Below are positions 6,506 through 54,194 of a DNA stretch of 64,000 nt, piece by piece (position 1 is the first letter of the stretch; every line of letters starts with the position of its first letter). Origin of the DNA: a virus; the IMG/VR virus record IMGVR_UViG_3300037010_001386, positions 2,860-66,859 of that record. One strand, given 5' to 3'. Position numbers and translations under genes: made by a program. The notes below the pieces were generated by a model. That model searched no databases, was not told where the DNA came from, and was given only the letters and a program-made list of their open reading frames with translations.

Positions 6506-6561
6506 ATTATTTTTTATTTTATTTATTTTTTCGACCTTTGTTTAGTTATAACCATTTTTTA

Positions 6562-7203
6562 TCAAACATGATTTCTTATTTTCAATGGTCTAATTTTATA
6601 GTCTCCAAGCACATACTGATTTTTCCAATAATTAGAACCAGTTTTATTTGTAATATTAGTAATCTTTCCTGTGTCATCTCCACCAATAAACCAACCTTTA
6701 GTAAATGACGCATTTTCACAAATCCAAGCATTACTACAAACCTGAGCATCACCAGAAACCCGAGCATCACCATATACCCAAGCATCATTATAAATCCGAG
6801 CTTTGCCAGCAATATAAGCATTGCCAGAAATCCAAGCATTATCATAAACCCAAGCGTTACCACAAACCCTAGCGTTACCAACAACTCGAGCATTGCCAGA
6901 AACCATAGCATATTCATATACCCAAGCATCATCATAAATCCAAGCATTACCATAAATATGAGCATTGCCAGAAATTCGAGCGTGACCAGCAATACGAGCA
7001 TTATCATAGACATAAGCATTACCATAAACACAAGCATTGCTAGAAATCCAAGCATTATCTTCCTGACTAAGATTTTCTTCTTTCTCTATATATCCACCCA
7101 AATCTCCTTTAGTTACATTTCCAAAACTTCTTTCTGCTTTTATTTGAAATAATGTTGTTCCAAATAATTCTTTTTTATTTTTTGTTATTGAATATTTTTT
7201 CAT
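6562..7203 (-). CDS. Hexapeptide-repeat (left-handed beta-helix-like) protein, copy 1
   Basis: LFQIKAERSFGNVTKGDLGGYIEKEENLSQ followed by (G/D)NA(W/R/C/Y)(V/I)(S/Y) repeats. Confidence 0.8.
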   Translation of the reverse strand: MKKYSITKNKKELFGTTLFQIKAERSFGNVTKGDLGGYIEKEENLSQEDNAWISSNACVYGNAYVYDNARIAGHARISGNAHIYGNAWIYDDAWVYEYAMVSGNARVVGNARVCGNAWVYDNAWISGNAYIAGKARIYNDAWVYGDARVSGDAQVCSNAWICENASFTKGWFIGGDDTGKITNITNKTGSNYWKNQYVLGDYKIRPLKIRNHV

Positions 7204-7244
7204 TTTCTTATATTTTTGACCTTTTAAATAATGGATATGTTTTT

Positions 7245-7291
7245 ATTATATACTAACCTTTTTAAATTGCAAGTGCATAAATTGTGTATAA
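7245..7291 (-). promoter_or_regulatory. Sigma70-like promoter (TTGCAA-N16-TATAAT) with adjacent DnaA-type box
   Basis: Intergenic; TGTGTATAA at 7283-7291. Confidence 0.55.
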
Positions 7292-7316
7292 AATTACACC
7301 AGTTTTTTGATTAATT

Positions 7317-7538
7317 TTAATCTATATGAAACATTTCATCTCCACCCACAAACTTTCTTTCTTTTGTTTCCCCTAATTTAGCTAAAACATTTCCTTTTTT
7401 ATCAACCAAATAACAAACCCTTTGTATCGGATTATCCGATGTCCCATTTCCCTCATTAACTTCCACTTTTATAACTTCAATTACTTTACAGCTTCTAAAT
7501 CTTGAAAATAATTCTTTGTTTTCTGTTTCTTCTTTCAT
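7317..7538 (-). CDS. Hypothetical protein
   Basis: 73-aa ORF with A-rich leader. Confidence 0.65.
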   Translation of the reverse strand: MKEETENKELFSRFRSCKVIEVIKVEVNEGNGTSDNPIQRVCYLVDKKGNVLAKLGETKERKFVGGDEMFHID

Positions 7539-7658
7539 ATTTTTATTTGTTTTTACTAATTGGAATTTCTATATATTGTATTTTTTGTTTTTTATTTTTC
7601 ATATTTTTTTATTTTAATTAGATTCTAACGATCTTTGTTTAGTTATAACCATTTTTTA

Positions 7659-8228
7659 TCAAATATGATTTTTTATTTTTAATGGTCTAATTTTATAGTC
7701 TCCAATCACATATTGATTTTTCCAATAGTTAGAACCAGTTTCGCTTGTAATATTAGTAATCTTTCTTGTGTCATCTCCACCAATAAACCAACCTTTAGTA
7801 AATGACGCATTTTCACAAATACGAGTATCACCAAAAACACGAGTATTGCCAGAAATTCGAGCATTACCATAAATCCAAGCATTATCAGAAATACAAGCAT
7901 TGCCAGAAACCATAGCATATTTACAAATACAAGCATTATCAGAAACCCAAGCATTGCCAGAAACACAAGCATTATCAGAAACCCAAGCATTGCCAGAAAT
8001 ATAAGCATTGCCAGAAACACAAGCATTGCCAAAAACCCAAGCATTGCCAGAAACACAAGCATTATCAGAAACCCAAGCGTCCCCATCTTGGCTGAGATTT
8101 TCTACTTTCTTTATCCAACCACCCAAGTCTCCTTTCTTTACATTTCCAAAACTCTTTTCTGCTTTTATTTGAAATAATGTTATTCCAAATAATTCTTTTT
8201 TATTTTTTGTTAGTGAATATTTTTTCAT
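7659..8228 (-). CDS. Hexapeptide-repeat protein, copy 2 (paralog of 6562-7203)
   Basis: Near-identical N- and C-termini to copy 1, four fewer 6-aa repeats. Confidence 0.8.
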   Translation of the reverse strand: MKKYSLTKNKKELFGITLFQIKAEKSFGNVKKGDLGGWIKKVENLSQDGDAWVSDNACVSGNAWVFGNACVSGNAYISGNAWVSDNACVSGNAWVSDNACICKYAMVSGNACISDNAWIYGNARISGNTRVFGDTRICENASFTKGWFIGGDDTRKITNITSETGSNYWKNQYVIGDYKIRPLKIKNHI

Positions 8229-8633: not shown

Positions 8634-8708
8634 ATTTTTCTAATTTATTTTCTATGAGGGGAAAGCTCGGCAGCATACCCCCCATAGAAAGCCGACCTTT
8701 GTTTTTTT

Positions 8709-8888: not shown

Positions 8889-9060
8889 TTTTTTGTTTAT
8901 TAAATTAGTTTACCGACCTTTATTCTAATTGTGTTATTATTAAATTATTTTTTGTTAAATCGTGTTCAATCATATTCATACTCATATAAGTGCATTTATA
9001 TTTCATAATATTATTTATTTAACTTACAAACATTTATTCTATTATTATTTGTTTATTTAT

Positions 9061-9510: not shown

Positions 9511-9568
9511 TTTTTTATTTTCTTTATATTAATTATTTTCTTGTGCCGACCTTTTAATTTATACTTTA

Positions 9569-9614
9569 ATTATAGCATACTATTTTTAGATTGCAAGTGA
9601 TAGTTATGCACAGG
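9569..9614 (-). promoter_or_regulatory. Sigma70-like promoter (TTGCAA-N16-TATAAT) with DnaA-type box
   Basis: CCTGTGCATAACTATCACTTGCAAT identical to the element at 19831-19855. Confidence 0.65.
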
Positions 9615-9706
9615 CTGTTTTTTGCATAATAGTTAATGAATGTTAGGTTAAATATTACTTCCAGTAACAATATGCGTTAAATGTTACTTGTTATGTTACT
9701 TTTAAC

Positions 9707-10843: not shown

Positions 10844-10897
10844 CTTGTTAATTTATAACGACCTTTCTATACATCTTTTTTAATTTAATAATATGAT

Positions 10898-13897: not shown

Positions 13898-14073
13898 TTA
13901 TTAATAAATCAATTAATTTTTCTAACAAATCAAATTTTGTCAATGTTGGATATTCTATTTCGCTATATATTTCATATCCAAATTGTTTGTCATTTTCTAT
14001 TTTTTGTAATTTGCTTTTTTTCATTATATTATAACTATTTAGAAAATGTAATAAAATAACCTGTGAATAACTA

Positions 14074-14934
14074 TTATTTTTTAAATACTAAAATATATTC
14101 ATGCACTCTAACTGATTTTCTATTTGATTCAAACTGCCCACTTCTGCTTGCCGCTATACCTGCAGCACCCCAAAATATTAATTCATCCCATAAATGAAAA
14201 CCTACTTTTTTTGCAAGACGAACTGTATCTCCGTTAAAGTGAACAAGATTTCCTTGTTTGTCTCTAAAGTTTCCGACAACCCATACTGCAAACGAACCAG
14301 GTTTTAATGCATCATATGTTACTTCCAAAGAACGCTTAATACCATTCAAAAATGCTTCATATGTAGGAAGATTACTTAAATCTCCTTGTAAAAGTGAATA
14401 CTTTTCCAAATCATAATAAGGAGGACAGGTATATGAAAAATCATATGCATTAGATTCTACTCCATATTCTTGACAATCCGCACACACCATTACAAAATTG
14501 CTATTTAACTTTTTCTGTTGTTCTTTTATTCTATCAACTTCTTCCTGTCTAATTTCAACGCCCAAATATTTATGCCCCATCGATGTAGCAATAAACCCTC
14601 TAGTGCCACCACCACCAAATGGATCAAAAATATCTGCATTCTGAGGACAATATGCAGATAAAATCATTTGAGCAAGATGAGGATTAAAAATACTTACATC
14701 GTATTTACTACCCATTAACGACATCTTTTTACCAACAAGTTCTCTCGTTTCTCCATCATCTCCTATAATATCTTTTAATTTTTTAACAATAGTCCAATCA
14801 GGTTTCCAAATACTAATAGGAAGAAATCCAATTCTATCCATCATTGATAATTTTTTAACTTCTTTTCCAAACAAATCATGCTCAATTGCAATATTGTCAA
14901 GATTTTTATTAAACAATTCATCTTTATTTTCCAT
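14074..14934 (-). CDS. Amino (N4-C/N6-A) DNA methyltransferase
   Basis: FDPFGGGGTRG SAM motif followed by TCPPY catalytic motif. Confidence 0.82.
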   Translation of the reverse strand: MENKDELFNKNLDNIAIEHDLFGKEVKKLSMMDRIGFLPISIWKPDWTIVKKLKDIIGDDGETRELVGKKMSLMGSKYDVSIFNPHLAQMILSAYCPQNADIFDPFGGGGTRGFIATSMGHKYLGVEIRQEEVDRIKEQQKKLNSNFVMVCADCQEYGVESNAYDFSYTCPPYYDLEKYSLLQGDLSNLPTYEAFLNGIKRSLEVTYDALKPGSFAVWVVGNFRDKQGNLVHFNGDTVRLAKKVGFHLWDELIFWGAAGIAASRSGQFESNRKSVRVHEYILVFKK

Positions 14935-15007
14935 TTGTTTTTTTAATATAATTTATAATTATGTTTTTATTATTACTTTTTTAATCATTCTATATATTTT
15001 ATTTTCA

Positions 15008-15205
15008 TTATCGTAAAAATCCTCGTGGATCAATTTTTTTTGGTTTAATATTAAATCTTTTTCCAATCTCTATTGCTTTTTTATTTGCATAATCGGTGTA
15101 ACGAGTAACTATTTCAAGTGCTTTACTATATGTTATTTCGTCTCTGAAAAGCAATTCTCTTGCATTTAATGAATCGTTATAAAGTTGTTCCATTTCTTGT
15201 TCCAT
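15008..15205 (-). CDS. Hypothetical protein
   Basis: 65-aa ORF directly behind a promoter at 15212-15240. Confidence 0.65.
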   Translation of the reverse strand: MEQEMEQLYNDSLNARELLFRDEITYSKALEIVTRYTDYANKKAIEIGKRFNIKPKKIDPRGFLR

Positions 15206-15267
15206 GATGATATAATAACATACTTAATTATTAAAAGCAAGTAAGAAAGTGCATAACCTGTGCATAA

Positions 15268-16272
15268 CTATTTTAATTTTGATAATACTTGTTTATATAC
15301 TCTATATGCAACTTGTGCCATCATAATAGGGGGAACACTCATTCCAATAACATATTGAGAATGTTGACCGCAATAATTATAGTCAAGAGGAAAACTTCCT
15401 ATCAATGAAATCGATTCATCATCTACTAATGTTTTTTCGTCAATCCAATAACGATTTATATCAGTTGTTATAGTATTGCTAGGATTATTAAGATTAAGCA
15501 TAACATCTCCGTATCTATTCTTTGAGTAATGCTGTGTTTCTTTTTTATTCTTTCCTTTTACAAAATCTTTTATAGGAATAATATCTTCGTCAAAATACAT
15601 ATCTATATTTGGTGATTTATTAAATAAATCGTCAGTTTCTATCTTTTTAGATAAATCTTTTCTAATTGCTATAAAAAATACTCTTTCTCGTGCTTGTGGA
15701 ACTCCCATTGTTTTTGAATTTAAAAGATAATATTTAACAACATAACCTGCTTCATCGAATTCTTTTAATATCCTCTTTACATATTTTACAGCATTTCCCA
15801 TTAATAAACCCTTAACATTTTCAGCTATAACTACTTTAGGTTGAAGTTTTTTTGCCAAATCTATGAAATCAAAAAATAATGTATCAAGAACCTGATTAGA
15901 CTGTCCTTCTCTAAACTTCTTTTCTTTACCCCAATCTTTTTCTCTATTACCTGCCATAGAAAAATTAGAACACGGAGGGCTACCATCAAGAACATCCAGA
16001 TTATATAATTCTTCAGGTAAATCATCTCTATCTTTCATTGTTTTAATACCATCTAATATATAATATTTAGGATGATGATTTGCTTCATAAATCTCTTGCA
16101 TTCTTGGGTCTATATCTTCTGCACCAATTACATTATAACCCGCCAGTTTATAACCCATACTTGACCCACCACCACATGAAAATGTGGAGAATACAGTACA
16201 TCCATGTTTTTCTATTCCTGGTGCAGGATATCCATCTGATATTTTCCATTTATAATTAAATTTATGCATCAT
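15268..16272 (-). CDS. C5-cytosine DNA methyltransferase
   Basis: FSCGGG, GSPPC, ENVKG, QARERVF, GMSVPP. Confidence 0.92.
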   Translation of the reverse strand: MMHKFNYKWKISDGYPAPGIEKHGCTVFSTFSCGGGSSMGYKLAGYNVIGAEDIDPRMQEIYEANHHPKYYILDGIKTMKDRDDLPEELYNLDVLDGSPPCSNFSMAGNREKDWGKEKKFREGQSNQVLDTLFFDFIDLAKKLQPKVVIAENVKGLLMGNAVKYVKRILKEFDEAGYVVKYYLLNSKTMGVPQARERVFFIAIRKDLSKKIETDDLFNKSPNIDMYFDEDIIPIKDFVKGKNKKETQHYSKNRYGDVMLNLNNPSNTITTDINRYWIDEKTLVDDESISLIGSFPLDYNYCGQHSQYVIGMSVPPIMMAQVAYRVYKQVLSKLK

Positions 16273-16518
16273 ATTTTATATTTACTCACATCTAATTATA
16301 CTATAACTATTTATAAAATGCAATCCATAACCTGTGCATAACTATAATGTGTTATTAATTATGTTTCTGTTTGTATTTACTTTTAAAGGAATGAAATGTT
16401 TTTGCATTTGACCCATTATCAATAACTAAAATATCACTATCACTACTTTGTAATAAAAAATTAATAATTTGAGCTGTTATCTCAAATTGATTCAAGTAAG
16501 ATACTATCGATGTTATCT

Positions 16519-16926
16519 TCATATTTTTTTTAACAAATTTAATTTTTCAATAAAAAATCCAGCTTGATTTTTTTCTCTTGGAACCCATACCATTTTGAAA
16601 TTTACAAATGATTTAATTCTATTGATTTCAGATATTATTGATAAAACTAAATTTTTATCATTTAATTTTTTGCCTACTTTCCCACTCATTACCCAAGCAA
16701 GATTATTTTTACTATCAGTTCTTATTTCAACATTTTTTATATTATTATTTTTACACCATAATAGAGCTTCTTTAACTGCAATAAGTTCTGCTATATTATT
16801 AGAACCACCATCTACTCTTTTATCTATAATAATATTTCCATTTTCATTTGTAACTACAGAGATCATTTTACGAAAAGAAATGTCTTTTTGATTATTACTA
16901 CATCCACCATCTGTGTATAATATCAT
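16519..16926 (-). CDS. rnhA: Ribonuclease HI
   Basis: YTDGG, NNIAELIAV, TDSK, WVPREKNQA. Confidence 0.85.
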   Translation of the reverse strand: MILYTDGGCSNNQKDISFRKMISVVTNENGNIIIDKRVDGGSNNIAELIAVKEALLWCKNNNIKNVEIRTDSKNNLAWVMSGKVGKKLNDKNLVLSIISEINRIKSFVNFKMVWVPREKNQAGFFIEKLNLLKKI

Positions 16927-17229
16927 TTTCTTAATTTTTATTGTTTACTGAATTTACTGTTTTTACTTATATAAAGTTTTTGTTTTAAAAAAATAAAAAA
17001 ATTTTTGAATTTTTTTTAAATTCATTCTTTCATTTTCATAGTTTTCCTAGTTTTCTTGATTTTCATAGTTTTCCTAGTTAAAATATATCTTTTTTATTGA
17101 TTTTAACTATCCTTTGGTATATTATTTGCTTTTTAAGACAACCCCATTCCTTTTTTTGGAAGGAATTTGTTTTAAAAAAATATGAATGGTAATTCAAATG
17201 AATATATTATTGGATTTATTTTAGGATAG

Positions 17230-17670
17230 CATAAAAATCAGTTAACTAATTTAAAAACTAATTAATTGATTTTTATGTTTGTGCTTTAGCAGTTTGAAGA
17301 TGGTTCAAGAGTTCTATCACCGTCTCTATAAAATTACTTATATTCCTGCCGTCCCCATAGTATTTCTACTACTCTGATTTCGCATAAAAGTTGCACATCC
17401 TTTTTATTGCGATTTTGATGTTGCTGGTGTTGTTGCGTCGCAGAGCATCTACCCCTCAGGGTTTTACCAATAATATATAGAATTCTATTATTTTCATTTC
17501 ATCTTAACCCAGACCTTGGGCAATGTATCTTCTCTAACGATTCGCATACTTACAATTCAGATATATCAGATACAACGATTCAGAGGTGAATTCACAATAA
17601 TCCTCATTCTCGATGAAACATAGTGTAGTCGAACACTACACTTTATTTTCTATGTTTTTTTAATTTTCTT
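17230..17670 (-). ncRNA. Candidate structured non-coding RNA
   Basis: ORF-free, GC-enriched, several hairpins, two upstream promoters; family not recognised. Confidence 0.4.
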
Positions 17671-17676
17671 AATTGC

Positions 17677-17757
17677 AGTATAGCACTTCTAAAAAAAATT
17701 GCAAGTTCTATCATTTCTGGTTTTTTTCATATTTACATTATACTATTTTTTTGCATT
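17677..17757 (-). promoter_or_regulatory. Tandem leftward promoters: TTGCAA-N16-TATACT and AATGCA-N9-TATAAT
   Basis: Match the two promoter classes seen elsewhere in the window. Confidence 0.5.
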
Positions 17758-17974
17758 TTTTTTGAATGCTATTATGCTTTAGATGACAGTTCCTGCACAT
17801 TATCATTTAAAAGGATAATTTTAGCAAAAGGTTACACTTTTTATTTCTTTTACTATGTATTTTAAATGATATAGTAAGTGCCTTTACTATATTACTCTAC
17901 TGATATAGTAAGATAAAATGTCTGTTTATCCTATAAAATAAAGGATTTTATGGTTATTTACTAAATGGATTATT

Positions 17975-18001
17975 AAAAAAAGTGCATTTTTTGTGTATAA
18001 T
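17975..18001 (+). promoter_or_regulatory. Late-type promoter A-tract-AGTGCA-N9-TATAAT
   Basis: Core identical to copies at 29404 and 34932. Confidence 0.7.
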
Positions 18002-18007
18002 ATAGAT

Positions 18008-18832
18008 ATGGAAACAAATAATATGATTAACTTAGGAGCAAAAGAAAGACCACGAGACGACAGAGATTATAAACTCGGTCAGATTCAAGCGCCAATTCAA
18101 ATACCCGAAACTTACTTGCCTGATTATTCTTGGATTATTCCTTTGAGAAATTATCAAGGGCATTTACCAACCTGTTCTGCAAACGCAGATACTCATTTAA
18201 GAATGGTTATGGATTATGACCCGCTTCTGCCACCGCCGAAATATAATCCGAGATTTAATTGGATTGAATTCAAGATTTTAGATTCTTATCCTTTGGAAGA
18301 TGGAACAGATATGAGAACGATTTTCAAAGCAAATCAGAATAATGGATTCTGTGATTATAATTTGCTTGATAATGATATTACTTTACCTCTGACTACATAC
18401 TCTGACCCGAGCGTATTAAATCAAACAATAGTTCAAAATGCTTTGCCAAGAAGAATACAATCTTATGCTTTTGGAGAGACGGATTATAATTCTTTGGCTC
18501 AACATATTTATCAAAATAAAGCCGTATTGCTTTTAATTAAATGCGATGATGGATTTTGGGGAACAGAAACTCCTACTTTTACAACAGGTAAATATGGACA
18601 TTTTGTGTGTGCAATAGGATATGACCCAGTAAAAGGTATAATGATAATTGATTCAGCTGACCCGAATTATGCAATCAAGTTTATCGCTCCGCAGTATTTA
18701 TCGTTTGTGATAGAAAGCGGAACAATGGTTGAACTCCCGCCGACGAAAGAAACTCTTATGACAAAATTGATAGCATATTTACAGCTATTGGTAGGTTTGC
18801 TTAAAAAGAAATTAGGTGGTAAAATAAATTAA
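18008..18832 (+). CDS. Papain-fold (C1-like) cysteine peptidase, possible endolysin
   Basis: QGHLPTCSANA, GHFVCAIGYD, IIDS; adjacent to holin-like gene; start at 18008 or 18023. Confidence 0.7.
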   Translation: METNNMINLGAKERPRDDRDYKLGQIQAPIQIPETYLPDYSWIIPLRNYQGHLPTCSANADTHLRMVMDYDPLLPPPKYNPRFNWIEFKILDSYPLEDGTDMRTIFKANQNNGFCDYNLLDNDITLPLTTYSDPSVLNQTIVQNALPRRIQSYAFGETDYNSLAQHIYQNKAVLLLIKCDDGFWGTETPTFTTGKYGHFVCAIGYDPVKGIMIIDSADPNYAIKFIAPQYLSFVIESGTMVELPPTKETLMTKLIAYLQLLVGLLKKKLGGKIN

Positions 18833-18855
18833 AAGGTCGTTTAATAAATAAAACA

Positions 18856-19823: not shown

Positions 19824-19830
19824 CAATTGA

Positions 19831-19876
19831 CCTGTGCATAACTATCACTTGCAATTAAAATCAAATAATGTATAAT
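19831..19876 (+). promoter_or_regulatory. DnaA-type box plus sigma70-like promoter (TTGCAA-N16-TATAAT)
   Basis: Same 25-nt element as 9590-9614 on the opposite strand. Confidence 0.65.
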
Positions 19877-20344: not shown

Positions 20345-20435
20345 AATGAAAGAATTAAAGTAATACCAGAAAAACTAATATAATAAAGACTTGCTTTTCG
20401 CAAAAATATGTGCTACACTTTAATTAAATAAAAAT

Positions 20436-21467: not shown

Positions 21468-21816
21468 AACTGGTGCTACAAGAGATGACGCAGAAAATAA
21501 AATAGATTATGAAGGTTTTTTATCTCCAAAGGTATTAGAAAGATACGGGAAATATATGCTTAAACATCAAATTCAATCGGACGGACAATTAAGGGCTTCT
21601 GATAATTGGCAAAAAGGCATAGATAAATCAGCTTATGTAAAATCTCTAATCAGACATACAATACAATTTTGGGGCGTAGAAAGAGGCGAAGAGATGCGAG
21701 ATGATAAAGGAAATCTCATTGATAAACAAGAAGCTTTATGTGCTATTTTATTCAATGCGATGGGCTATTTATATGAAGATTTAAAAGAAAAAAATATATG
21801 CAAAAAAAGGGATTAA
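21454..21816 (+). CDS. dATP/dGTP diphosphohydrolase-like (DUF5664-type) protein
   Basis: FKTGATRD, KIDYEGFLSP, NWQKG, SLIRH, AILFNA. Confidence 0.65.
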   Translation: MRTFKTGATRDDAENKIDYEGFLSPKVLERYGKYMLKHQIQSDGQLRASDNWQKGIDKSAYVKSLIRHTIQFWGVERGEEMRDDKGNLIDKQEALCAILFNAMGYLYEDLKEKNICKKRD

Positions 21817-23069: not shown

Positions 23070-23073
23070 AACT

Positions 23074-41399: not shown

Positions 41400-43481
41400 A
41401 TGAACAAGATAATCGCAACGTTTAATGGAAATACACCATTTAAGTTTTTTATAGAAAAAGCTGAATCATTTAATCCAGAAGATTATAATGGCGAATGGGT
41501 TATTTATGGATGTGCTTCTTCTACAAACACAGACCACGATCAAGAAAAAATGGCTCCTCAAGCATTGGAGCAAATGGCAGAGATAATCAACAAGCAACCA
41601 ATACCGCTTAGATATGAACATCAAAAAGATGAAAATTCTATTATAGGAAAAGTATTTGAAGCAAGTGTTGATGCTCGTAATAAATTGATGATTAAAGCAC
41701 AACTTGATAAAACAAATCCTATTGCAAAAGTATTATGGGACGGAATTATATCAGGTTCAAAAATGGGATTTTCAGTAGGAGGAAGAGTAGTTCAAGCGGC
41801 GAGAGAATTAGTGGAGGGAATAGGTAAAAAGATTAGAACATTTTATAAAGTAGATGTCGATGAAGTTTCAGTAACTCCTCGACCATCTAATTTTGATGCG
41901 TGGATGGTAAATCATTCTTTCGCTAAATCAATATCGGAGGCAAGCACATATAGAGATAATTTTAGTTTCTATGGTGCATTTTTAAGAGACAATCCCGGAT
42001 TAGATTATTTGGCAGTGATTGAAAAATCAATACCAGATAAAGATTGGATAAAGGTCGATAGTAACATACAAAATAAAAAAATGAAAATAATTAAAACAAG
42101 CAGAACTTCAACGGAAACAGAAGAAACAACACCATTTGTTGAAACAACAGAAACAGATTCATATGGTAAAACATCTCCAGATCTAATGGCAGAAGCAAGA
42201 AAATTAATGAAAATTAATGATGAAATTTATAATAAACTTGGAATTAAAAGTGAAAAAGATTTAGATGATAACTGGGATAAATATCAACAAGCAGTAAGTA
42301 GTAAAGTTAATGGAAAAATTTCTAAAGAAGTAATGAAATATCTATTAGATAATCGTTATTATGCAATAGTAAGTGCATTATTTCATTTGAATAAGATAGA
42401 AAAATCTCAGTCTCAGGAAGATGAAACATCAGAAACGACAGAAGAAAAAGAAAATTCTACCATTGATGAATTAATAACTTCTGATAAAAGTATTCCAGAA
42501 ACATCTGATACTGAAACGACAACAAAAGAAACATCAGATACTGAAACAACAACAAAGGAAGAAGATGAAGAAACTGTAACCTCAAAATCGTATGTTGATG
42601 AAGTAGTTGGAAATCTTAAAAAGGAACTTGATTCCAAGTTCAGCGATGTACTTGGCGTTTTAAAAGCCATTAAGAAATCTATTGATACTACCGACACAAC
42701 AGACGAAACAACTGAAAAAGATGAATCAGAAACAACATCTGAAACAGAAAAAGATATAGATGATGAATCTGAAACAACTGAAAAAGATGAAACTGAAACA
42801 ACAAATGAAACAACAAAAGGTTTTACAACTTCTACAACAGAAAAAGATGTAGACGATGAAACAACTTCTACAACAGAAAAAGATGTAGACGATGAAACAA
42901 CATCTACAACATCTGAAGCTAAAAAAGCATTTAGCAGAAAATCATCTTCAACAGAATCTACAACAACAAAAGCAGAAGAAACAATTTCTGAAACTTTTGA
43001 AACAACCGATTCTGACACAACAGATTCTGATGAAACAACAACATCTGATACAACTGATTCAACTACAAATGATTATGGTGCTGAATATGTAATTCCAGAT
43101 GTAAATGAAGCAATGAAATCTGCAAGAGCGATGGGAATAAATCCATTAGATGCTTTTGTATATGCTTTAACAAAGCATATCAAACAATTCGAGAATAAAA
43201 TAATGGAAAAGAATAATACAAGAATTGTTGGATTAGCAAATGAAGTTGCTACTATAATTAGAAACGATAAGACCATTCAAAAATCTATCAAAGGATGGAT
43301 GAATGAACCAATCGCTCCTAAATCAGTAGCGTTTGGAGTTCCTTACATTAAAGAAAGAAACGGAGATTTATTTAGATTAACACCTATTAATAAATCAGAA
43401 GACGAAGAGTTAAGGAAATCATTTGTTGGTAAGAGTTTCAAAGAACTTTATCAAGCAAAATATTCAACTACATTGGAATAA
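41400..43481 (+). CDS. HK97-family prohead protease fused to T/E/S/D-rich scaffold region
   Basis: IYGCASS..DHDQE, LRYEH, IGKV, MGFSVGG, DEVSVTPRPSN. Confidence 0.88.
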   Translation: MNKIIATFNGNTPFKFFIEKAESFNPEDYNGEWVIYGCASSTNTDHDQEKMAPQALEQMAEIINKQPIPLRYEHQKDENSIIGKVFEASVDARNKLMIKAQLDKTNPIAKVLWDGIISGSKMGFSVGGRVVQAARELVEGIGKKIRTFYKVDVDEVSVTPRPSNFDAWMVNHSFAKSISEASTYRDNFSFYGAFLRDNPGLDYLAVIEKSIPDKDWIKVDSNIQNKKMKIIKTSRTSTETEETTPFVETTETDSYGKTSPDLMAEARKLMKINDEIYNKLGIKSEKDLDDNWDKYQQAVSSKVNGKISKEVMKYLLDNRYYAIVSALFHLNKIEKSQSQEDETSETTEEKENSTIDELITSDKSIPETSDTETTTKETSDTETTTKEEDEETVTSKSYVDEVVGNLKKELDSKFSDVLGVLKAIKKSIDTTDTTDETTEKDESETTSETEKDIDDESETTEKDETETTNETTKGFTTSTTEKDVDDETTSTTEKDVDDETTSTTSEAKKAFSRKSSSTESTTTKAEETISETFETTDSDTTDSDETTTSDTTDSTTNDYGAEYVIPDVNEAMKSARAMGINPLDAFVYALTKHIKQFENKIMEKNNTRIVGLANEVATIIRNDKTIQKSIKGWMNEPIAPKSVAFGVPYIKERNGDLFRLTPINKSEDEELRKSFVGKSFKELYQAKYSTTLE
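42081..43481 (+). CDS. Probable nested in-frame scaffolding protein (466 aa)
   Basis: AAAGGTCG at 42050-42057 plus A-rich leader before in-frame ATG (Met228). Confidence 0.55.
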   Translation: MKIIKTSRTSTETEETTPFVETTETDSYGKTSPDLMAEARKLMKINDEIYNKLGIKSEKDLDDNWDKYQQAVSSKVNGKISKEVMKYLLDNRYYAIVSALFHLNKIEKSQSQEDETSETTEEKENSTIDELITSDKSIPETSDTETTTKETSDTETTTKEEDEETVTSKSYVDEVVGNLKKELDSKFSDVLGVLKAIKKSIDTTDTTDETTEKDESETTSETEKDIDDESETTEKDETETTNETTKGFTTSTTEKDVDDETTSTTEKDVDDETTSTTSEAKKAFSRKSSSTESTTTKAEETISETFETTDSDTTDSDETTTSDTTDSTTNDYGAEYVIPDVNEAMKSARAMGINPLDAFVYALTKHIKQFENKIMEKNNTRIVGLANEVATIIRNDKTIQKSIKGWMNEPIAPKSVAFGVPYIKERNGDLFRLTPINKSEDEELRKSFVGKSFKELYQAKYSTTLE

Positions 43482-43694: not shown

Positions 43695-44738
43695 ATGAAA
43701 GAAATTAGTGCTTTAGAAAAAGCATTAGGAAGGATAGAAAAGGATGTTAATGTTTCGTTCGCTGGACCAATTCCATCAGGATTATTGGCACGTCAAGATT
43801 TGGAGTCGACATTAGTCGTGCTCTCAGATCGTCTTACGCCATTTCGTGATAGAGTTAGTCGTGAACAAGGACAGGGCAATGCCCATCTTTGGAATCAAAG
43901 AACAAGACTTGACACCATTTCTAAAGGACCTGCAGGACTGGTAAATTTGTTTTATGCTGATGGAAACATTCCAAATCAGAATGACCCAGCATATGTTCAA
44001 AAATCAGCTGCATACAAATACCTTGGTCAGACTGCGGTAATTACTGGCCCGATGATTGCATCAGGTAGGTCTTACATTGATATGGAGGCGGAAGTTGCCG
44101 AGGCAGCTTTACGTGCCGTTATACAATGTGAGGAATGGGCTGATTTCAAAGCATCATCGTCTGTCAATTCATTGGCATATGATGGTTTTGATGCTCAGTT
44201 AACAACTGCGGTCATTGATAATACAGGAAATACTTTAACATCTACAGGACTTACAATCCCTGCATTCGACTCAGTCATAAAGGCTACTCGTAATCAGGGC
44301 AATACTAAAGTAGATGCTATCTATCTCTCGTATGGTCTTCAAACATTAGTAAATCAGATAATCTCAGGACAAGCTCGTTACTTCGTTCAACCTGACGGTG
44401 GACGAGGAACGACTTTGGCAGCTGGTGACAATGTCGTCAGCTATATGAGTCCTTTGGGAAGTGTTCCTATTATAGGAGATTTCTTCTGCAATCCGACTTT
44501 GCCATATCCTTATGATGCGGCTGGTTCGTCTGATGTTTCAGGTAGTCCACTTTCTGATGTTTACTTCTTAAGACACGATTCGCTTGGAAATGAGATGGTT
44601 GATTTGATGCCAATAGGACGCACAGAACTTGCAAAAATTGCAGACTCAGTTCGTTTCTATATTAACGAATACACAGTTTTGGCTTTGAAAGCTGAACCTT
44701 GGAATGGCATTTTATTGAACGTCGCAGATCCTGCATAA
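43695..44738 (+). CDS. Major capsid protein
   Basis: 347 aa after protease/scaffold; LARQDLE, EEWADF, AYDGF, FYINEYTVLALKA; biased codon usage. Confidence 0.85.
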   Translation: MKEISALEKALGRIEKDVNVSFAGPIPSGLLARQDLESTLVVLSDRLTPFRDRVSREQGQGNAHLWNQRTRLDTISKGPAGLVNLFYADGNIPNQNDPAYVQKSAAYKYLGQTAVITGPMIASGRSYIDMEAEVAEAALRAVIQCEEWADFKASSSVNSLAYDGFDAQLTTAVIDNTGNTLTSTGLTIPAFDSVIKATRNQGNTKVDAIYLSYGLQTLVNQIISGQARYFVQPDGGRGTTLAAGDNVVSYMSPLGSVPIIGDFFCNPTLPYPYDAAGSSDVSGSPLSDVYFLRHDSLGNEMVDLMPIGRTELAKIADSVRFYINEYTVLALKAEPWNGILLNVADPA

Positions 44739-44762: not shown

Positions 44763-44825
44763 GTGGCAGTGAGAGATTGAGTGGTTCTTCCGAGCCTACT
44801 CAATCTCTGCTGGAAGCATTGTCAC
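44763..44825 (+). other. Nested stem-loop after the capsid gene
   Basis: GTGGCAGTG/CATTGTCAC outer stem and GAGATTGAGT/ACTCAATCTC inner stem. Confidence 0.6.
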
Positions 44826-44835: not shown

Positions 44836-46035
44836 ATGATAGTAAAAATAATAGATAAAAGAGTAAGTGCTATTTTATGGAAAAATAAATATCTGCCAAC
44901 AAATGTAGATATAGATTTATCGGTAAGTGATATATTGCATTTCTCTAGAAGGAATCCAATAGAATTTAATATACCAACAATTGATTATAATCCTGAAACA
45001 TGGAAGAATAAACAATTTGTTTTAATAGGGGACGCTGATTCTACCAGTGGTTTTGGTAATTGCACGACTAATTTAATAACGCAATCTATTAAAAATAAAT
45101 ACGATATTAGATGGATTGGAAAACAATACGAAGTTCCACAATTAACGAGATATAATTATCAAGATATATCAACTGATATGGGTGTGGTATTCCACGAACA
45201 ACCAAAACAAGAATGGCTAACTTTACCATTCCAGAAAAAACTTGCAATTGTTCCATTTGAAACAACTCGTATTCCAAAATCTTGGGTTTATAAAATAAAC
45301 TCACTTGATGCAATAATGGTTCCTTGTAGTCAGAATGTGCAAATGATGAAAGATTCTGGTGTAACTATTCCTATTGAAGAAATAAGATGGGGTGTGAATA
45401 CAAAAGAATTTCCATTATTAAAAAGAAATAATAAGTATTTTACATTTGGACAAATGGGTGCTTTATCATTAAGAAAAGGAACTGATACTTTAATTAGTGC
45501 TTTCAAGAAAGCATTTCCTATAGAAGAATATCCAAATGTTAGATTATTATTAAAAACATCAAACGATGGTTTTTTATTTGAGACAAAAGACGATAGAATA
45601 AAAGTGCAAATAGGAAAATTCAATAAAAAAGAATTATTAGATAATTTCTTACAGCAAATAGATTGTTTTGTATTTCCTACAAGAGGTGAAGGTGCTGGAC
45701 TTCCTCCATTAGAAGCAATGGCTACTGGATTGCCAGTTATCTGCACAGATTGGTCTGGTCCAAAAGATTATCTTCCAATTGATTATACATATTGGCTTAA
45801 ATATAAAATGGTTCCTGCTACAGATTTTAGCAAGAAAATATATAAAGAACCTTGCGGAGATTGGGCTGAACCAGATGAAGAGCATTTAATAGAACTTATG
45901 CGATATTGCTATAATAATCAAGATGAAGCAAAAAAGATGGGAGAACTTGGCTCTAAATGGGTTCATAAAAATATGACATGGGATAAAAATATACATTTAT
46001 TCTTTGATGTTCTTAATAAGTATTTTAAAAAATAG
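44836..46035 (+). CDS. GT-B (GT4-like) glycosyltransferase
   Basis: PFETTRIP, RKGTDTLI, PTRGEGAGLPPLEAMATGLPVI. Confidence 0.88.
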   Translation: MIVKIIDKRVSAILWKNKYLPTNVDIDLSVSDILHFSRRNPIEFNIPTIDYNPETWKNKQFVLIGDADSTSGFGNCTTNLITQSIKNKYDIRWIGKQYEVPQLTRYNYQDISTDMGVVFHEQPKQEWLTLPFQKKLAIVPFETTRIPKSWVYKINSLDAIMVPCSQNVQMMKDSGVTIPIEEIRWGVNTKEFPLLKRNNKYFTFGQMGALSLRKGTDTLISAFKKAFPIEEYPNVRLLLKTSNDGFLFETKDDRIKVQIGKFNKKELLDNFLQQIDCFVFPTRGEGAGLPPLEAMATGLPVICTDWSGPKDYLPIDYTYWLKYKMVPATDFSKKIYKEPCGDWAEPDEEHLIELMRYCYNNQDEAKKMGELGSKWVHKNMTWDKNIHLFFDVLNKYFKK

Positions 46036-46068
46036 TGCATATTTTCTGTATAATTAAGATATAAAACA

Positions 46069-47052
46069 ATGGTAACACCAGATTATGTAAATATTCAAAG
46101 TGGAGATTGGGATAGCAATAGTAACAGCACACCAACTGGAGCTCCTTTCGCATTCGCAAAAGATAATCCTTATATTACAAAAGATTATCTTATATCTACG
46201 CCAGAAGCGTTGGGTTTAGGAATTAGTGCTACATCTGCAGATGGATTTTATGCGTCTGGAGCATTAGATGCTGTTATATTAGAAGCGAGTGCGATGGTAA
46301 ATAAGATTTGTCAGAGATATTTTGATGTGCAAACTATTGATGAACAAAAAACTCGATTTTCTGTAGCACCTGCAAATCCAGAACTTGTTACTGTATTTTT
46401 AAATAATTCTCCATATCAGAAAATTAATTCTATTTACATACAAGTATTAAAATGGTTTATACAGATAGATACATCTCCAGAAACGGGATATGTTCAAGAT
46501 TTTCCTGCAAATGGTTTTTATAAAATAGTTCCTATGTTATCAAATGCTGGAGCTGGAACTGGATCGCCAATACCATCAGAAATATTAGAAAGACAACCGC
46601 TTGGAGTTCTTTGGACAAATTATACATTCGGATTTGGTAAAAGATTATTATCTTATGGATTAGGAACAGCAGATGGAATAACAAATGTTTATCAAGCATC
46701 TTTGGGAAACAGATTATGGGCTCCGAGTCAGGGAGTTAATGTTTATTTTAACGGAGTATTACAATCTGAATATACAATAGATTATCCAAATGGAAAAGTA
46801 ACATTCAATACAGCACCAACTGCGGGAACTATTGTTACTGCAGATTTTACAACAAATGAATCCATACCAGCAGATGTTAGAAGAGCAACATTATTATTAG
46901 TAATTGATTTACTTGGAAGAGCTATGCATAATCCACTTGGATTAAGTAGCGAGAGTATTTTATCACATAGCGTTAGTTTTGGAGATAGCGTTATAGAAAA
47001 AGCAAAACAGATATTGAAACCTTATATCAAAAATACCATAAAATTATTCTAA
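46069..47052 (+). CDS. Head-tail connector/adaptor with inserted beta domain
   Basis: EASAMVNKICQRYF, IPADVRRAT, KQILKPY; promoter at 46034-46054. Confidence 0.65.
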   Translation: MVTPDYVNIQSGDWDSNSNSTPTGAPFAFAKDNPYITKDYLISTPEALGLGISATSADGFYASGALDAVILEASAMVNKICQRYFDVQTIDEQKTRFSVAPANPELVTVFLNNSPYQKINSIYIQVLKWFIQIDTSPETGYVQDFPANGFYKIVPMLSNAGAGTGSPIPSEILERQPLGVLWTNYTFGFGKRLLSYGLGTADGITNVYQASLGNRLWAPSQGVNVYFNGVLQSEYTIDYPNGKVTFNTAPTAGTIVTADFTTNESIPADVRRATLLLVIDLLGRAMHNPLGLSSESILSHSVSFGDSVIEKAKQILKPYIKNTIKLF

Positions 47053-47435
47053 TGACCCCAGACCTTTTTATAGATACTATTTCAGTAAAACGCAGAAAGA
47101 ATACAACTTCCGCAAGTTTAGATATTTTAAATAATCCTATTTACGGAGATCCAACGACTTGGGATTTTGTATATACGAATATAAAAGCAAGATTGTTATG
47201 GGGTTCTAAAAAAATGATATTTGCAGAAACGGGAGAATTAATTAGTCCGAATGGAACTTGTTACATACCAGCTAATATTAAAATACTACCACAAGATCGT
47301 ATTATAACAGTAGATACTCCTGGCTATAGTAGCAATATAGAATATGTTTGCGAATCTGTAATACCGGGATTTTCAATGTTAGGTGGTCCGATAGCATTTT
47401 ATGAGGTCGAATTAAGCTTACCTATATCAAATTAA
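47052..47435 (+). CDS. Head closure protein
   Basis: Size, position and ILPQDRII motif. Confidence 0.55.
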   Translation: MTPDLFIDTISVKRRKNTTSASLDILNNPIYGDPTTWDFVYTNIKARLLWGSKKMIFAETGELISPNGTCYIPANIKILPQDRIITVDTPGYSSNIEYVCESVIPGFSMLGGPIAFYEVELSLPISN

Positions 47436-47439
47436 AATT

Positions 47440-47907
47440 ATGAACGAAATACGCAAAGAATCTTTAATAGTAGCATTAAATAAATTTTATCAAGAATTGA
47501 AAGATTTGGGTGCAAGTGATTCAGAAACGAAAGATATGATGGCAGAATTTAAAAAATGGTTTGAACAATCATTAGATTATGACTTGGCTTCTAATCGTGT
47601 AATTGATAAATACTTTGGAAAGTCAATGAGTCAAAAAAATCATTTTAAAGAATCGTGGAGAACTGAAAAAGGTTTCTTGGGAATTTTTGGAACACCAGAA
47701 ACTGATAAAATTAGAAGATATATAGATACACAATTATTAAATGGCGAAAATCCAGCAGATGTATATAATGCATTGGCAGTGCTTGGAGCAGAACAGATGG
47801 GAATTGATGAGAGCACAAAAATGTTAATTAAAATCAAAGAGATGGTCGAGGAAGAATATAAAAAGATTGAAGACAAAGGTCTATTAGCTTGGAAAAGAAA
47901 TGGATAA
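47440..47907 (+). CDS. Hypothetical, possible minor head protein
   Basis: Contains FGKS and TEKG linkers. Confidence 0.55.
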   Translation: MNEIRKESLIVALNKFYQELKDLGASDSETKDMMAEFKKWFEQSLDYDLASNRVIDKYFGKSMSQKNHFKESWRTEKGFLGIFGTPETDKIRRYIDTQLLNGENPADVYNALAVLGAEQMGIDESTKMLIKIKEMVEEEYKKIEDKGLLAWKRNG

Positions 47908-49249: not shown

Positions 49250-49311
49250 AAAACAATGCAATTTTTCTGTATAATTAAATAAAGGTCTAAATAAAATAAA
49301 TTAATAATAAT

Positions 49312-51823: not shown

Positions 51824-53229
51824 TGAATCAATCAATTTTAACAAATTGGGCTAACGCAATTCAAAAATACGAAGGATGGTATATAGGTTCTCGTTCTTAT
51901 AAAAATAATAATCCAGGGAATATTACATATGATGCCGCTATTCAATTAGGAATGGTAGGAGTAACAGGAAGCGATGGAGGTTCTCCTAATATGGCTATTT
52001 TTGATACATACGAAAATGGATTTGCGGGATTGGAACTTTATATAACAAAAGCGTGTTCTGGAACTTGGGGATTATATCCACCAGGAACAACATTTTTACA
52101 ATTTTGTAATATCTATGCTGGTAATCCTTCAAATAATTATATAAATGGTATTGCAAGTGAAATTGGATGTAATACGAATGATATTATTTCTGCTATATTA
52201 AATGGAACATTTTCATCGCAAGGAGAAGCAATTCCAGATTTAAATCCTGATAGTTTAATAGTAACACCAGCAGTAATAACTCTTGGCGGCGATTCTTCTG
52301 ATACTTATAAGTTCGTTGTTCAACAAGGAACATACGAAAGAACTTGGGTTAGATATACGAATTCAAATGCTATATTAGGAACTGGCGGTCAATATATAAA
52401 TATGATTGATAATGGCGTTGGAACTAATTCATATACATTTACTATTATTTGTAGGAATTGGGATTCAAATTCATCTATTGTAAAAAGTGGTGTTCCTGCT
52501 GATTGGAAAACACAAAAAATTAATTTAGAAAAAATTTATGGACAAACAGGAACTGCTCATACTTTTATAGACCCATTTGGACAAAATCCACGACAAGGAT
52601 TGCCAGGTGTATATATAACTAATTTAGAAGAAACTATTGATAGTTCTTCCACGCCAGATAGTCCTTGCACTTTATATGCAGTAACTCTTTTACAAGCTCC
52701 ATTTGGTAGCATTATAGATACTCCAACATTACAAGCAATTCAACCTCCAGCACCATCTAATTTAATGGCAGTTCCAGTTATTGCTCTTGGATTAGATACT
52801 GCAAGTGGAATACAATTATTTGCAATAAAACAAGGTTCATATTCAAGAAAATGGTCGAGATATAATAGTAGCACATCTATTCCAGGGAGTCCTAAATGGT
52901 TAAGTTATGTAGATTATGGACCTGGAATAAATGAATACGATGTAACAATTATTTGCAGAAATTGGGAGCCTACTTCGTTGCCTTATTTATATGGAGTAAC
53001 TCAATCGTGGGCTCAACAGAAAAGCAGTATAGAAAATATGTATAATAAAACAAATACAGCTCATTTCTTTTTAGATGCGTTTGGACAATATCCAACACAA
53101 GATTCAACAAAAGGTGTTTATATTGTAAAACTATCAGAATCAGTTGATGTATCATCTACACCATCAGACCCAGTAACATATTTTGACCTTGTTTTATTAC
53201 AAACACCACCTGGAGTAAATATAGAATAA
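51823..53229 (+). CDS. Tail-tip protein: lysozyme-like N-domain plus two tandem Dit-like repeats
   Basis: EGW...NNNPGNI...ENGF; duplicated ~150-aa unit (QGxYxRxWxRY, TIICRNW, TAHxFxDxFGQ, GVYI). Confidence 0.6.
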   Translation: MNQSILTNWANAIQKYEGWYIGSRSYKNNNPGNITYDAAIQLGMVGVTGSDGGSPNMAIFDTYENGFAGLELYITKACSGTWGLYPPGTTFLQFCNIYAGNPSNNYINGIASEIGCNTNDIISAILNGTFSSQGEAIPDLNPDSLIVTPAVITLGGDSSDTYKFVVQQGTYERTWVRYTNSNAILGTGGQYINMIDNGVGTNSYTFTIICRNWDSNSSIVKSGVPADWKTQKINLEKIYGQTGTAHTFIDPFGQNPRQGLPGVYITNLEETIDSSSTPDSPCTLYAVTLLQAPFGSIIDTPTLQAIQPPAPSNLMAVPVIALGLDTASGIQLFAIKQGSYSRKWSRYNSSTSIPGSPKWLSYVDYGPGINEYDVTIICRNWEPTSLPYLYGVTQSWAQQKSSIENMYNKTNTAHFFLDAFGQYPTQDSTKGVYIVKLSESVDVSSTPSDPVTYFDLVLLQTPPGVNIE

Positions 53230-53240
53230 ACAAAATTAAA

Positions 53241-53591
53241 ATGATTGAAATAACATTACAAGACGGAACTACATTAACTGATTTTGATTGGGATGAAATA
53301 TCTTCAGATACGCTTGTTAATTTTATGGAAAATCAGAAGGTTGTTAAATTATCTTGGTATCCTATAACAAAAATTAAAGTTACTTATGATAATTTGACAA
53401 CAACATTGACACCAAATAAAGATGAAAGAGTTTATTTTGGATATAAATCAATCGCACAGAAAGTAGATAATGAATTAAAAGAACATATAATAGGTTGCGT
53501 GGTTGGAATAGTTAGAAAAGGATTTGTAGTGGAAGAAAACTTTTTAAGCTCAGTCGACAATGAATTACACGGATTAAAAATAAATAAATAA
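53241..53591 (+). CDS. Hypothetical tail-region protein, paralog of 56728-57138
   Basis: Shared WxExS, YP, RVY, GxVVGxVRxGxVxEExF. Confidence 0.65.
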   Translation: MIEITLQDGTTLTDFDWDEISSDTLVNFMENQKVVKLSWYPITKIKVTYDNLTTTLTPNKDERVYFGYKSIAQKVDNELKEHIIGCVVGIVRKGFVVEENFLSSVDNELHGLKINK

Positions 53592-53592
53592 T

Positions 53593-53784
53593 ATGAATAA
53601 TATAACAAGTAAAACAATAGTTACAATGACAATTATAAAAGCGAATGGCAAGATAAAGAATCTTGGTATTGCTTCTGGTGGAACGATAACACAAAAGATT
53701 CTTTTCTGGATAAAAGTAAAGATAAATAATATATGTGCATTAACGGAAAGATTGTTCAAAAAAGGTCGATTAATTAATAAATAA
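53593..53784 (+). CDS. Hypothetical protein
   Basis: 63-aa ORF in operon. Confidence 0.5.
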   Translation: MNNITSKTIVTMTIIKANGKIKNLGIASGGTITQKILFWIKVKINNICALTERLFKKGRLINK

Positions 53785-53790
53785 AATAAA

Positions 53791-54156
53791 ATGGCAACAG
53801 TATTGACAAATACAGGAAGAGCACAGATTATTTCTAGATTGAATTCATCTATAACAACTCCATATATTGGTTGGGGGACAGGAAGTGGAACATCGGCAGT
53901 TACAGATACAACTCTTTTCACAGAAGTAACAGCAGAAAGAGCAGCGGCAACACAATCAATAGTCACAACGACAGTTACTGGGGATACATTACAAGATGTT
54001 GCAACATTAACATCTGTTAATGGTGGAACATATACTAATGTAGGAACATTTGATGCTTCATCTGCTGGTAATTTATATGTTAAGAAAGACTTTACAGGAG
54101 TAGTTCTTAATGCTGGTGATAAAATACAATTCACGATACAACTTCAGCAACTCTAA
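53791..54156 (+). CDS. Small virion structural protein
   Basis: LTNTGR, YIGWGTG, DTTLFTE, GTFDASSAGNL, GDKIQFT. Confidence 0.7.
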   Translation: MATVLTNTGRAQIISRLNSSITTPYIGWGTGSGTSAVTDTTLFTEVTAERAAATQSIVTTTVTGDTLQDVATLTSVNGGTYTNVGTFDASSAGNLYVKKDFTGVVLNAGDKIQFTIQLQQL

Positions 54157-54194
54157 AAGATAAAGAATTAAAGGTTGTTAAAATAAAATAAAAA

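Follow-up and report, generated by a model that had tools for sequence, protein, structure and literature searches.

The AAAGGTC(G) motif precedes start codons on the coding strand

The window analyzed here comprises 64,000 of the 66,859 bases of IMGVR_UViG_3300037010_001386, a phage record rated complete and referred to below as G000. The genome (GC content, ~31%) is organized in two gene arms that diverge near 17.5 kb. In addition to the large terminase, the minus arm contains replication and DNA modification genes, which encode a primase zinc ribbon, a DnaB-like helicase, two exonucleases, a bacterial-type beta clamp, VRR-NUC and RNase H proteins, and methyltransferases. The plus arm encodes RecA, further methyltransferases, glycosyltransferases, the portal, a protease/scaffold protein, the major head protein, and connector and tail proteins. 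In both arms, and in early as well as late genes, the sequence AAAGGTC(G) recurs in the leaders of genes. This motif is the subject of the present analysis, and its copies are listed together with other features in Table 1.

A codon model that made no use of the motif called 86 genes on the full record of 66,859 bp. AAAGGTC is present in 18 copies in the window, compared to the 7.34 ± 2.54 copies expected from 100 dinucleotide shuffles, none of which reached 18. The hexamer AAGGTC was found in 14 of the 86 upstream regions (positions -45 to -1) versus 0.60 ± 0.77 in dinucleotide-shuffled sequence (maximum of 5 in 2,000 shuffles), and the antisense hexamer GACCTT was found in none of them. When all 180 permutations of the same six letters were counted, AAGGTC scored 14 and the runner-up scored 3. 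AAAGGTC was also the sole G/C-containing word among the top upstream k-mers (14/86 versus 0.53 expected from its genome frequency). All of the start-proximal sense copies fall within bins -45 to -16. Genome-wide, 29 AAGGTC hexamers were counted, of which about 19 lie on the coding strand with an ATG downstream. An earlier note on this DNA had described AAAGGTC(G) as a recurrent coding-strand leader before ATG codons and had named a lack of enrichment upstream of starts, or of strand bias, as grounds for refutation. The enrichment over shuffles and the antisense count of 0 bear out that description, as do the 14 exact sites listed in the note, all of which are present, on the coding strand, and upstream of an ATG, with starts off by at most 1 nucleotide (nt). 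These data confirm that the motif is a real, strand-specific, start-anchored leader element.

In the 14 genes, the distances between the C of GGTC and the A of the ATG are 14, 16, 17, 17, 18, 18, 18, 23, 24, 25, 26, 27, 28, and 37 nt. They form clusters at 14 to 18 and 23 to 28 nt, in rough agreement with the spacers near 16 to 17 and 22 to 26 nt that were reported earlier. No other ATG intervenes between the motif and the start in any of the 14 genes or at the internal start described below, and each of these starts opens an open reading frame (ORF) of at least 40 amino acids (aa). Forty candidate copies from eight genomes, a set that includes some chance internal ATGs, were aligned on AGGTC. 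The consensus is T-A-A-A-G-G-T-C-G, followed by an A/T-rich tract that extends to the ATG, with A at position -1 in 31 copies and at position -2 in 27 and with G following GGTC in 24. No conserved block was found further upstream of the motif. At three copies (35478, 47875, and 53761), the motif lies inside the 3' end of the preceding ORF.

Canonical Shine-Dalgarno (SD) sites are essentially absent, as the earlier note had stated: SD-like tetramers (GGAG, GAGG, or AGGA) at positions -20 to -4 precede only 4 of the 86 genes. When the start contexts of these genes were sorted, 38 starts overlapped the upstream stop codon or lay within 12 nt of it, 7 had a TATAAT within 20 nt, 14 had the motif, and 27 had none of these. 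In this otherwise SD-less phage, a gene that starts at window position -619, outside the window, carries a perfect AGGAGGTG at 5 nt upstream of the ATG and may be a recent acquisition.

Between site 8694 and its start codon lies a stable 42-nt hairpin (8640-8690, minus strand; -25.4 kcal/mol; z, -4.1). Judged by eye, the loop of this hairpin could form 6 of 7 base pairs with the motif, and a pseudoknot that hides the motif is possible. The promoter-leader module at site 9548 is duplicated over ~45 nt at window position -936, before a gene that starts at window position -970. Four of the 18 AAAGGTC copies had not been listed previously: the copy at 43 to 49 (minus), which is probably nonfunctional, and those at 996 (plus), 35803 (minus), and 47061 (minus), which lie inside or antisense to genes.

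TABLE 1 Positions of motif copies and other features, numbered from the first base of the window; negative positions lie outside it
Feature	Position	Strand	Context
AAAGGTC(G)	43-49	-	Inside gene -169 to 103; only an 11-codon ORF follows
AAAGGTC(G)	6533-6539	-	27 nt before ATG 6505; 61-aa ORF 6320-6505
AAAGGTC(A)	7218-7224	-	14 nt before ATG 7203 (213 aa, phrog_5070); 21 nt downstream of TTGCAA-N17-TATAAT promoter
AAAGGTC(G)	8694-8700	-	60 nt before ATG 8633 (44-aa ORF)
AAAGGTC(G)	8915-8921	-	26 nt before ATG 8888 (59-aa ORF)
AAAGGTC(G)	9548-9554	-	37 nt before ATG 9510 (149 aa); downstream of TTGCAA/TATAAT promoter
AAAGGTC(G)	10860-10866	-	16 nt before ATG 10843 (378-aa exonuclease, phrog_284)
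AAAGGTC(G)	18832-18838	+	Overlaps upstream ORF stop; 17 nt before ATG 18856 (61 aa)
AAAGGTC(G)	34680-34686	+	2 nt past stop of gene 32249-34678; 18 nt before ATG 34705 (73 aa)
AAAGGTC(T)	34961-34967	+	8 nt after TATAAT of late promoter copy 34931-34956; 25 nt before ATG 34993 (49 aa)
AAAGGTC(A)	35478-35484	+	In 3' end of ORF 35259-35498; 18 nt before ATG 35503 (172 aa)
AAAGGTC(G)	42050-42056	+	Inside gene 41400-43481; 24 nt before in-frame ATG 42081
AAAGGTC(T)	47875-47881	+	In 3' end of ORF 47440-47907; 18 nt before ATG 47900 (141 aa, head-morphogenesis-like)
AAAGGTC(T)	49281-49287	+	5 nt after TATAAT; 24 nt before ATG 49312 (158-aa tail-region gene)
AAAGGTC(G)	53761-53767	+	23 nt before ATG 53791 (121 aa, phrog_240 head protein)
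Variant AAAGGTTG	54170-54177	+	17 nt before ATG 54195 (85 aa)
Variant (G)AGGTC(G), weaker candidate	47404-47408	+	31 nt before ATG 47440 (155 aa)
Late promoter, 26 bp (TAGTGCATTTTTTGTGTATAATTAAG type), five copies	17980-18005, 29403-29428, 34931-34956, 35225-35250, 46033-46058		None expected by chance
TTATGCACAGGTTAT repeat	9604-9618, 14056-14070, 15253-15267, 16327-16341, 19827-19841		
Large terminase	124-2331		Minus arm
Major head protein	43695-44738		Plus arm; phrog_752

The motif has no fixed distance to promoters

The position of the motif was compared with those of promoter elements. In five cases with a TATAAT box, the gap between TATAAT and the motif is 6, 9, 14, 21, and 26 nt. Among 31 copies from eight genomes, a TAnnnT sequence is absent within 30 nt of the motif in 11, and the distances in the rest are scattered from 1 to 24 nt. 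A sigma-70-type promoter element was rejected as an identity for the motif, since the motif has neither a fixed distance to the -10 hexamer nor a conserved upstream partner. The variable distance to the -10 box, along with the start-anchored position, indicates that the motif is tied to the start codon and not to the start of transcription. Where a TATAAT box exists, the motif lies downstream of it, which agrees with the earlier claim that the motif is within the mRNA.

The early promoters of the phage are sigma-70-like (TTGCAA-N17-TATAAT). In the phage family, many genes have a TATAAT 6 to 9 nt upstream of the ATG, a spacing from which leaderless or near-leaderless mRNAs would arise. In three copies of the late promoter, the TATAAT ends 12 to 14 nt before the ATG, and this spacing points to very short leaders for those structural genes. 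A looser sixth copy of the late promoter precedes gene 49312. Early promoters are adjoined by an operator-like 15-bp repeat, TTATGCACAGGTTAT, that occurs in 5 copies versus 0.44 expected and to which a phage repressor or early regulator probably binds. A third type of promoter, composed of a palindromic CTTGC-TTTT-GCAAAAA box followed by an extended -10 element (TGTGCTAnACT), precedes recA (20370-20435) and gene 25871 (25805-25870) and may represent a middle class.

The motif precedes an in-frame internal start in the protease/scaffold gene

One copy of the motif lies within a reading frame. Gene 41400-43481 encodes a 693-aa protein with an N-terminal prohead protease domain (phrog_1028), and initiation at the in-frame ATG at 42081 (Met228) would yield a 466-aa scaffold-like product. 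Translation of a scaffold from inside the protease gene is a known arrangement, exemplified by C/Nu3 of phage lambda, and gene 41400-43481 resembles it in having an in-gene scaffold start, which here is predicted from sequence. In 12 of 13 aligned family members (L208 being the exception), an in-frame ATG is located 7 to 14 codons past a conserved Trp-x-x-Val/Ile, usually W-x-K-V, which marks the end of the protease domain, and an A-rich stretch precedes that ATG. The Lys-Val pair is written AAG GTC in both G000 and the relative G001, recreating the motif. The probability of this codon choice from codon usage is 0.0087 in G000 and 0.063 in G001, and AAG GTC is rare in G000, where it encodes 2 of 88 Lys-Val pairs. 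Selection of the motif within an ORF before an internal start favors a translation signal over a promoter or a cleavage site.

The motif is concentrated in one clade of the phage family

To place the motif among relatives, 30 family loci were collected with a 327-aa virion protein (46069-47052) and its alignment, and 2 short loci from a portal scan were added, for a total of 32 loci examined. The whole family is without SD sites: SD-like motifs precede from 3 of 41 to 11 of 91 genes in four relatives. Among non-A/T 7-mers in upstream regions, AAGGTCG ranks first in G001 (5/41 versus 0.17 expected), where it lies 19 to 27 nt from the ATG, as well as in L001 (3/18 versus 0.10). The motif occurs twice in L203 and once each in L205, L006, L213, and L215. 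In the other 25 of the 32 loci, no start is preceded by the motif, and the complete genomes G002 to G005 show no excess of the motif over a reversed-pattern control. The wider core GTCG is enriched in the same clade only (16 versus 3.4 expected in G000, 9 versus 4.4 in G001, and 4 versus 0.9 in L001) and is near expectation in other genomes.

The ortholog of gene 49312 is preceded by the motif in G000, G001, L001, L203, L205, and L213, with flanks that have diverged. TATGGTCGA, located before the G002 ortholog, was considered as a variant of the motif and is more simply explained as a -10 box. In a tree of the 327-aa protein, motif carriers fall in one clade (support, 100/97), with 5 of its 6 members carrying the motif versus 3 of 24 outside it. 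G000 and G001 have only the structural module (41400-62878) in common, and each carries the motif before unrelated nonstructural genes. As a control, 74 unrelated RecA-bearing viral loci were scanned. AAGGTC occurred upstream of starts not at all in 63 of these loci, once in 10, and three times in 1, and the SD-poor loci among them had only A/T-rich upstream words.

Cultured relatives were not found by DNA. No cultured relatives of the 327-aa virion protein were found either, and the terminase has only distant matches (≤27% identity). Within record G001, locus L105 (5560-11486) contains 33 tRNA genes and a transfer-messenger RNA-like gene in ~6 kb, as detected with ARAGORN. This tRNA set is very large for a phage of this size class.

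The predicted host belongs to a group with lineages that lack the anti-SD

Of the 120 proteins that best match the phage RecA, 6 carry organism names, and all 6 are from Patescibacteria, Parcubacteria, Liptonbacteria, or Colwellbacteria, with 50 to 55% identity. The best named match to the beta clamp (DnaN) is a Levybacteria protein (29% identity), and an ESM Atlas search with RecA returned mixed phyla. According to the account of Tsurumaki et al. (2022, PMC9297842), the anti-SD is detected in only 48% of Parcubacteria and a subgroup is without it; SD helices are thought not to form in those lineages. Based on these protein matches, the SD-less phage family, and its promoters close to start codons, the predicted host is most likely a Parcubacteria bacterium (Patescibacteria/candidate phyla radiation [CPR]) without an anti-SD. 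A scan of a genome collection with the alignment of the 327-aa protein returned a single 7.4-kb family contig (L023), in a metagenome-assembled genome labeled Micrarchaeota. No match to the phage RecA was found in that assembly. Because the phage encodes a bacterial RecA and beta clamp, we read L023 as a binning artifact; the contig is probably misbinned, and Micrarchaeota was rejected as the host.

The earlier note had suggested looking for a complement of the motif in host rRNA. Metagenome contigs were scanned for the universal 16S 3' anchor followed by GACCTT within 15 to 40 nt, so that tails beyond the 40-nt gap lay outside the reach of the scan. The scan returned 79 loci, 69 of which keep CCTCC and have the hexamer in the spacer. 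The other 10 include L047, L051, L078, and L103, which lay outside the Rfam check. L061 is eukaryotic 18S and is identical to L084 in its matched sequence. L101 is of organellar origin. No rRNA family matches L069, which is identical to L081 in its matched sequence. The remaining locus, L049 (1-130), is a bacterial 16S end without CCUCC, in which an extra small hairpin after helix 45 is followed by CGACCUU. It is, by inference, Gracilibacteria/SR1-like, and its organism reads TGA as a sense codon, unlike the phage, in which TGA is a genuine stop codon. A lone match of this kind among so many records is within chance expectation. The search produced one lead among 79 matches and no support for a complement.

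Other features of the genome

Several additional features of the window were recorded. No tRNA genes and no Rfam families were found in the window, and two plus-arm proteins of ~1,800 aa had no family match. The regions 14074-16272 and 21798-24628 together contain at least four genes for DNA methyltransferases (two C5, one N6/N4, and one of the phrog_67 type), which suggests a heavy investment in antirestriction. Two early genes on the minus strand, 6562-7203 and 7659-8228, are paralogs of phrog_5070 type (function unknown) whose C termini are almost identical. Their 3' flanks are duplicated, and the exact motif is retained in only one of the two flanks.

Between the divergent arms lies a noncoding region of ~1.07 kb (16927-17992), with a GC-richer core (17270-17650) and a terminator-like hairpin (17622-17642), which could be a replication origin. 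The interval 16900-18000 had no Rfam match at an E value of ≤1. The plus strand of 17270-17655, which was folded in the search for a small RNA partner of the motif, folds no better than shuffled sequence (z, -0.65). A long hairpin (44765-44815, plus strand) is located in the leader of a 399-aa glycosyltransferase-like gene (44836), and the same spot in relatives has GC-rich, hairpin-prone sequence (before 6914 in L003 and before 8395 in L005).

The motif as a candidate signal for translation initiation

Start anchoring, strand specificity, and the in-frame internal start fit a translation-linked mRNA signal better than they fit a promoter. The earlier note had taken the motif for such a signal, and that part of its reading is supported. 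Any of the three roles that it proposed, namely, an enhancer, a ribosome stand-by site, or a site for an RNA-binding protein, may apply, and the motif may or may not raise translation. Genes for S21, S1-domain proteins, and sigma region 4 were not found in the phage, and a scan of 53 different proteins turned up no RNA-binding family. Since the motif precedes unrelated genes in G000 and G001, serves both arms, and is accompanied by no phage gene for a reader, a host factor is favored. We put at about even the chance that the motif is a cis-acting signal in the mRNA leader, read by the host, for translation initiation in an SD-less host that is most likely a member of the Parcubacteria. The enrichment of the motif, its strand and position, its independence from promoters, its conservation in relatives, and the nested start are observed. 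Its action in RNA and on initiation, a reader that is part of the host ribosome or another protein of the host, and the identity of the host are inferred.

In this model, AAAGGUC(G), with the consensus U-A-A-A-G-G-U-C-G and its A/U-rich tract, would be a cis-acting mRNA-leader element read by host machinery and not by a phage protein. It would mark or promote initiation at the first AUG 14 to 37 nt downstream, in a host predicted to be without an SD/anti-SD system. Initiation could then follow three routes. The first would use short-leader or leaderless transcripts from promoters near the ATG, and the second would depend on coupling to an upstream stop codon. The third route would use the motif and would serve cistrons that follow a longer gap or whose leader lies in the end of the preceding ORF or inside another ORF.

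Several observations weigh against a host-read initiation signal. The spacing is broad (10 to 37 nt and, in one case, 60 nt), unlike that of a site that positions the P site. The 27 of 86 genes that have no motif, coupling, or close TATAAT box show that initiation does not require the motif. The metagenome 16S-tail scan yielded no complementary segment in the rRNA of the host, and the host assignment is drawn from 50 to 55% RecA identity and a 29% DnaN match. Gene 47440-47907, which has no family match and is located among head-tail genes, is limited to motif-bearing genomes. Finally, the distribution of the motif is that of a single clade, in which inheritance within a phage lineage cannot be separated from choice of host.

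A more specific form of the initiation signal is a possibility that we regard as doubtful. Here, AAAGGUCG would be the mRNA half of a true SD replacement in anti-SD-less Parcubacteria and would dock the small ribosomal subunit directly, either by pairing with a rewritten single-stranded segment of 16S rRNA or via a ribosomal protein. After docking, the subunit would move through the A/U-rich tract until it reached the first AUG. The signal would have been copied by the phages that infect these bacteria, which would use it even for a nested internal start.

The motif could instead be an element of mRNA stability or processing, at which a host RNase or a 5'-end-binding factor would cleave or protect the transcript, with only indirect effects on translation. 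It would then create or stabilize transcripts with an unstructured A-rich leader, as a 5' stabilizer comparable to STAB-SD. The loose spacing to the ATG suits this explanation, as does the location of the motif ~5 to 26 nt from a -10 box in several cases, near the predicted 5' end. Processing at intercistronic copies would also free a new 5' end in a host that favors leaderless or short-leader mRNAs. A cut at 42050, however, would destroy the protease mRNA to make scaffold, and the motif stays within 37 nt of the start in all but the one hairpin case, a constraint that a pure stabilizer would not need. We think a role in stability unlikely.

Strict strand specificity and a leader location would also be expected of a signal that acts in transcription through the non-template strand, such as a pause or loading site for a NusG/RfaH-like factor that couples the ribosome or an unusual promoter part. 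RfaH-dependent operons are without SD sites, and their leader element ops recruits the ribosome through the factor, which provides a precedent. This explanation is nevertheless improbable, given that the motif has neither a fixed distance to the -10 box nor a conserved upstream partner, stands before single downstream cistrons inside operons and within an ORF, and occurs in a phage with no sigma region 4 gene.

The motif might be bound by a regulator encoded by the phage itself, either an RNA- or DNA-binding protein acting as a translational repressor or activator, for which T4 RegA is the model, or a phage small RNA. The confinement of the motif to one phage clade, the restriction of gene 47440-47907 to motif-bearing genomes, and the presence of the complement GACCTT at 17512-17517 (plus strand) in the 1.07-kb noncoding region all accord with such a regulator. 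Against it, both the early and the late arms use the motif, and G000 and G001 share no nonstructural gene; no RNA-binding family was found, and gene 47440 sits among head-tail genes; and the noncoding region has a fold z score of -0.65 and no Rfam match. We consider this explanation highly improbable.

The chance that the motif has no function and reflects composition or repeats, such as a duplicated promoter-leader module, is close to negligible: the leaders at 9548 and window position -936 are clear duplicates over ~45 nt and genes 6562-7203 and 7659-8228 are paralogous with similar 3' flanks, but the other copies share only the 8- to 9-nt core, the counts exceed those in shuffled sequence, and the motif is conserved in relatives with diverged flanks.

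A specific leader word of 7 to 9 nt is a concrete, mutable target for the question of how start codons are selected on leadered and polycistronic mRNAs in bacteria that have lost the anti-SD. The phage adds to what bacterial genomes can easily offer by placing the word ahead of an in-frame internal start, a position that makes sense only for a translation signal. If the proposed role is correct, the motif would improve the calling of gene starts in CPR bacteria and their phages. It would also provide a sequence marker to assign uncultured phages to anti-SD-less Parcubacteria, hosts that are almost never cultured.

Comparison with known systems

Among the papers that could be searched, none on the motif was found, in line with the statement in the earlier note that no description of it was known. 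Stand-by sites and S1-dependent A/U-rich enhancers act tens of nucleotides upstream of the start, in unstructured leaders and at a flexible distance, and the phage motif is like them in its upstream, flexible-distance location in the leader. They are, however, loose A/U- or CA-rich tracts, whereas the phage motif is a specific word that contains G and C and is set in an A/U-rich tract. The termination upstream ribosome-binding sites (TURBS) of caliciviruses are motifs that precede the restart AUG, often overlap the end of the preceding ORF, and are thought to tether the small subunit by pairing with rRNA. TURBS and the phage motif are alike as short motifs upstream of an AUG, often at the end of the preceding ORF. 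Unlike the phage motif, TURBS are eukaryotic and need termination nearby, and many of the phage copies follow promoters and not ORFs.

The motif and the extended SD sequence have AAAGG in common. Like the SD, the motif is a short, purine-rich mRNA sequence that lies upstream of starts on the coding strand only. It differs in containing none of GGAGG, GGAG, GAGG, and AGGA and in its spacing, which is 14 to 37 nt (24 nt at the internal start) and not ~4 to 10 nt. The presumed host group also differs from SD users in being described as without CCUCC (PMC9297842).

In the part of the literature consulted, the published system that comes closest to the motif is that of the start-associated sequences (SAS) of Cluster K mycobacteriophages, a 13-bp GGGATAGGAGCCC-type repeat that is located 3 to 7 bp from the start and contains AGGAG (Pope et al. 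2011, PMC3203893). As described there, the SAS is limited to nonstructural genes and is absent from the host genome (PMC3203893). The phage motif is shorter (7 to 9 nt), lies further upstream, is without an SD core, and serves structural genes too. Both are phage-wide motifs that occur in one orientation before unrelated genes and are kept across relatives, and for both a role in translation initiation is proposed.

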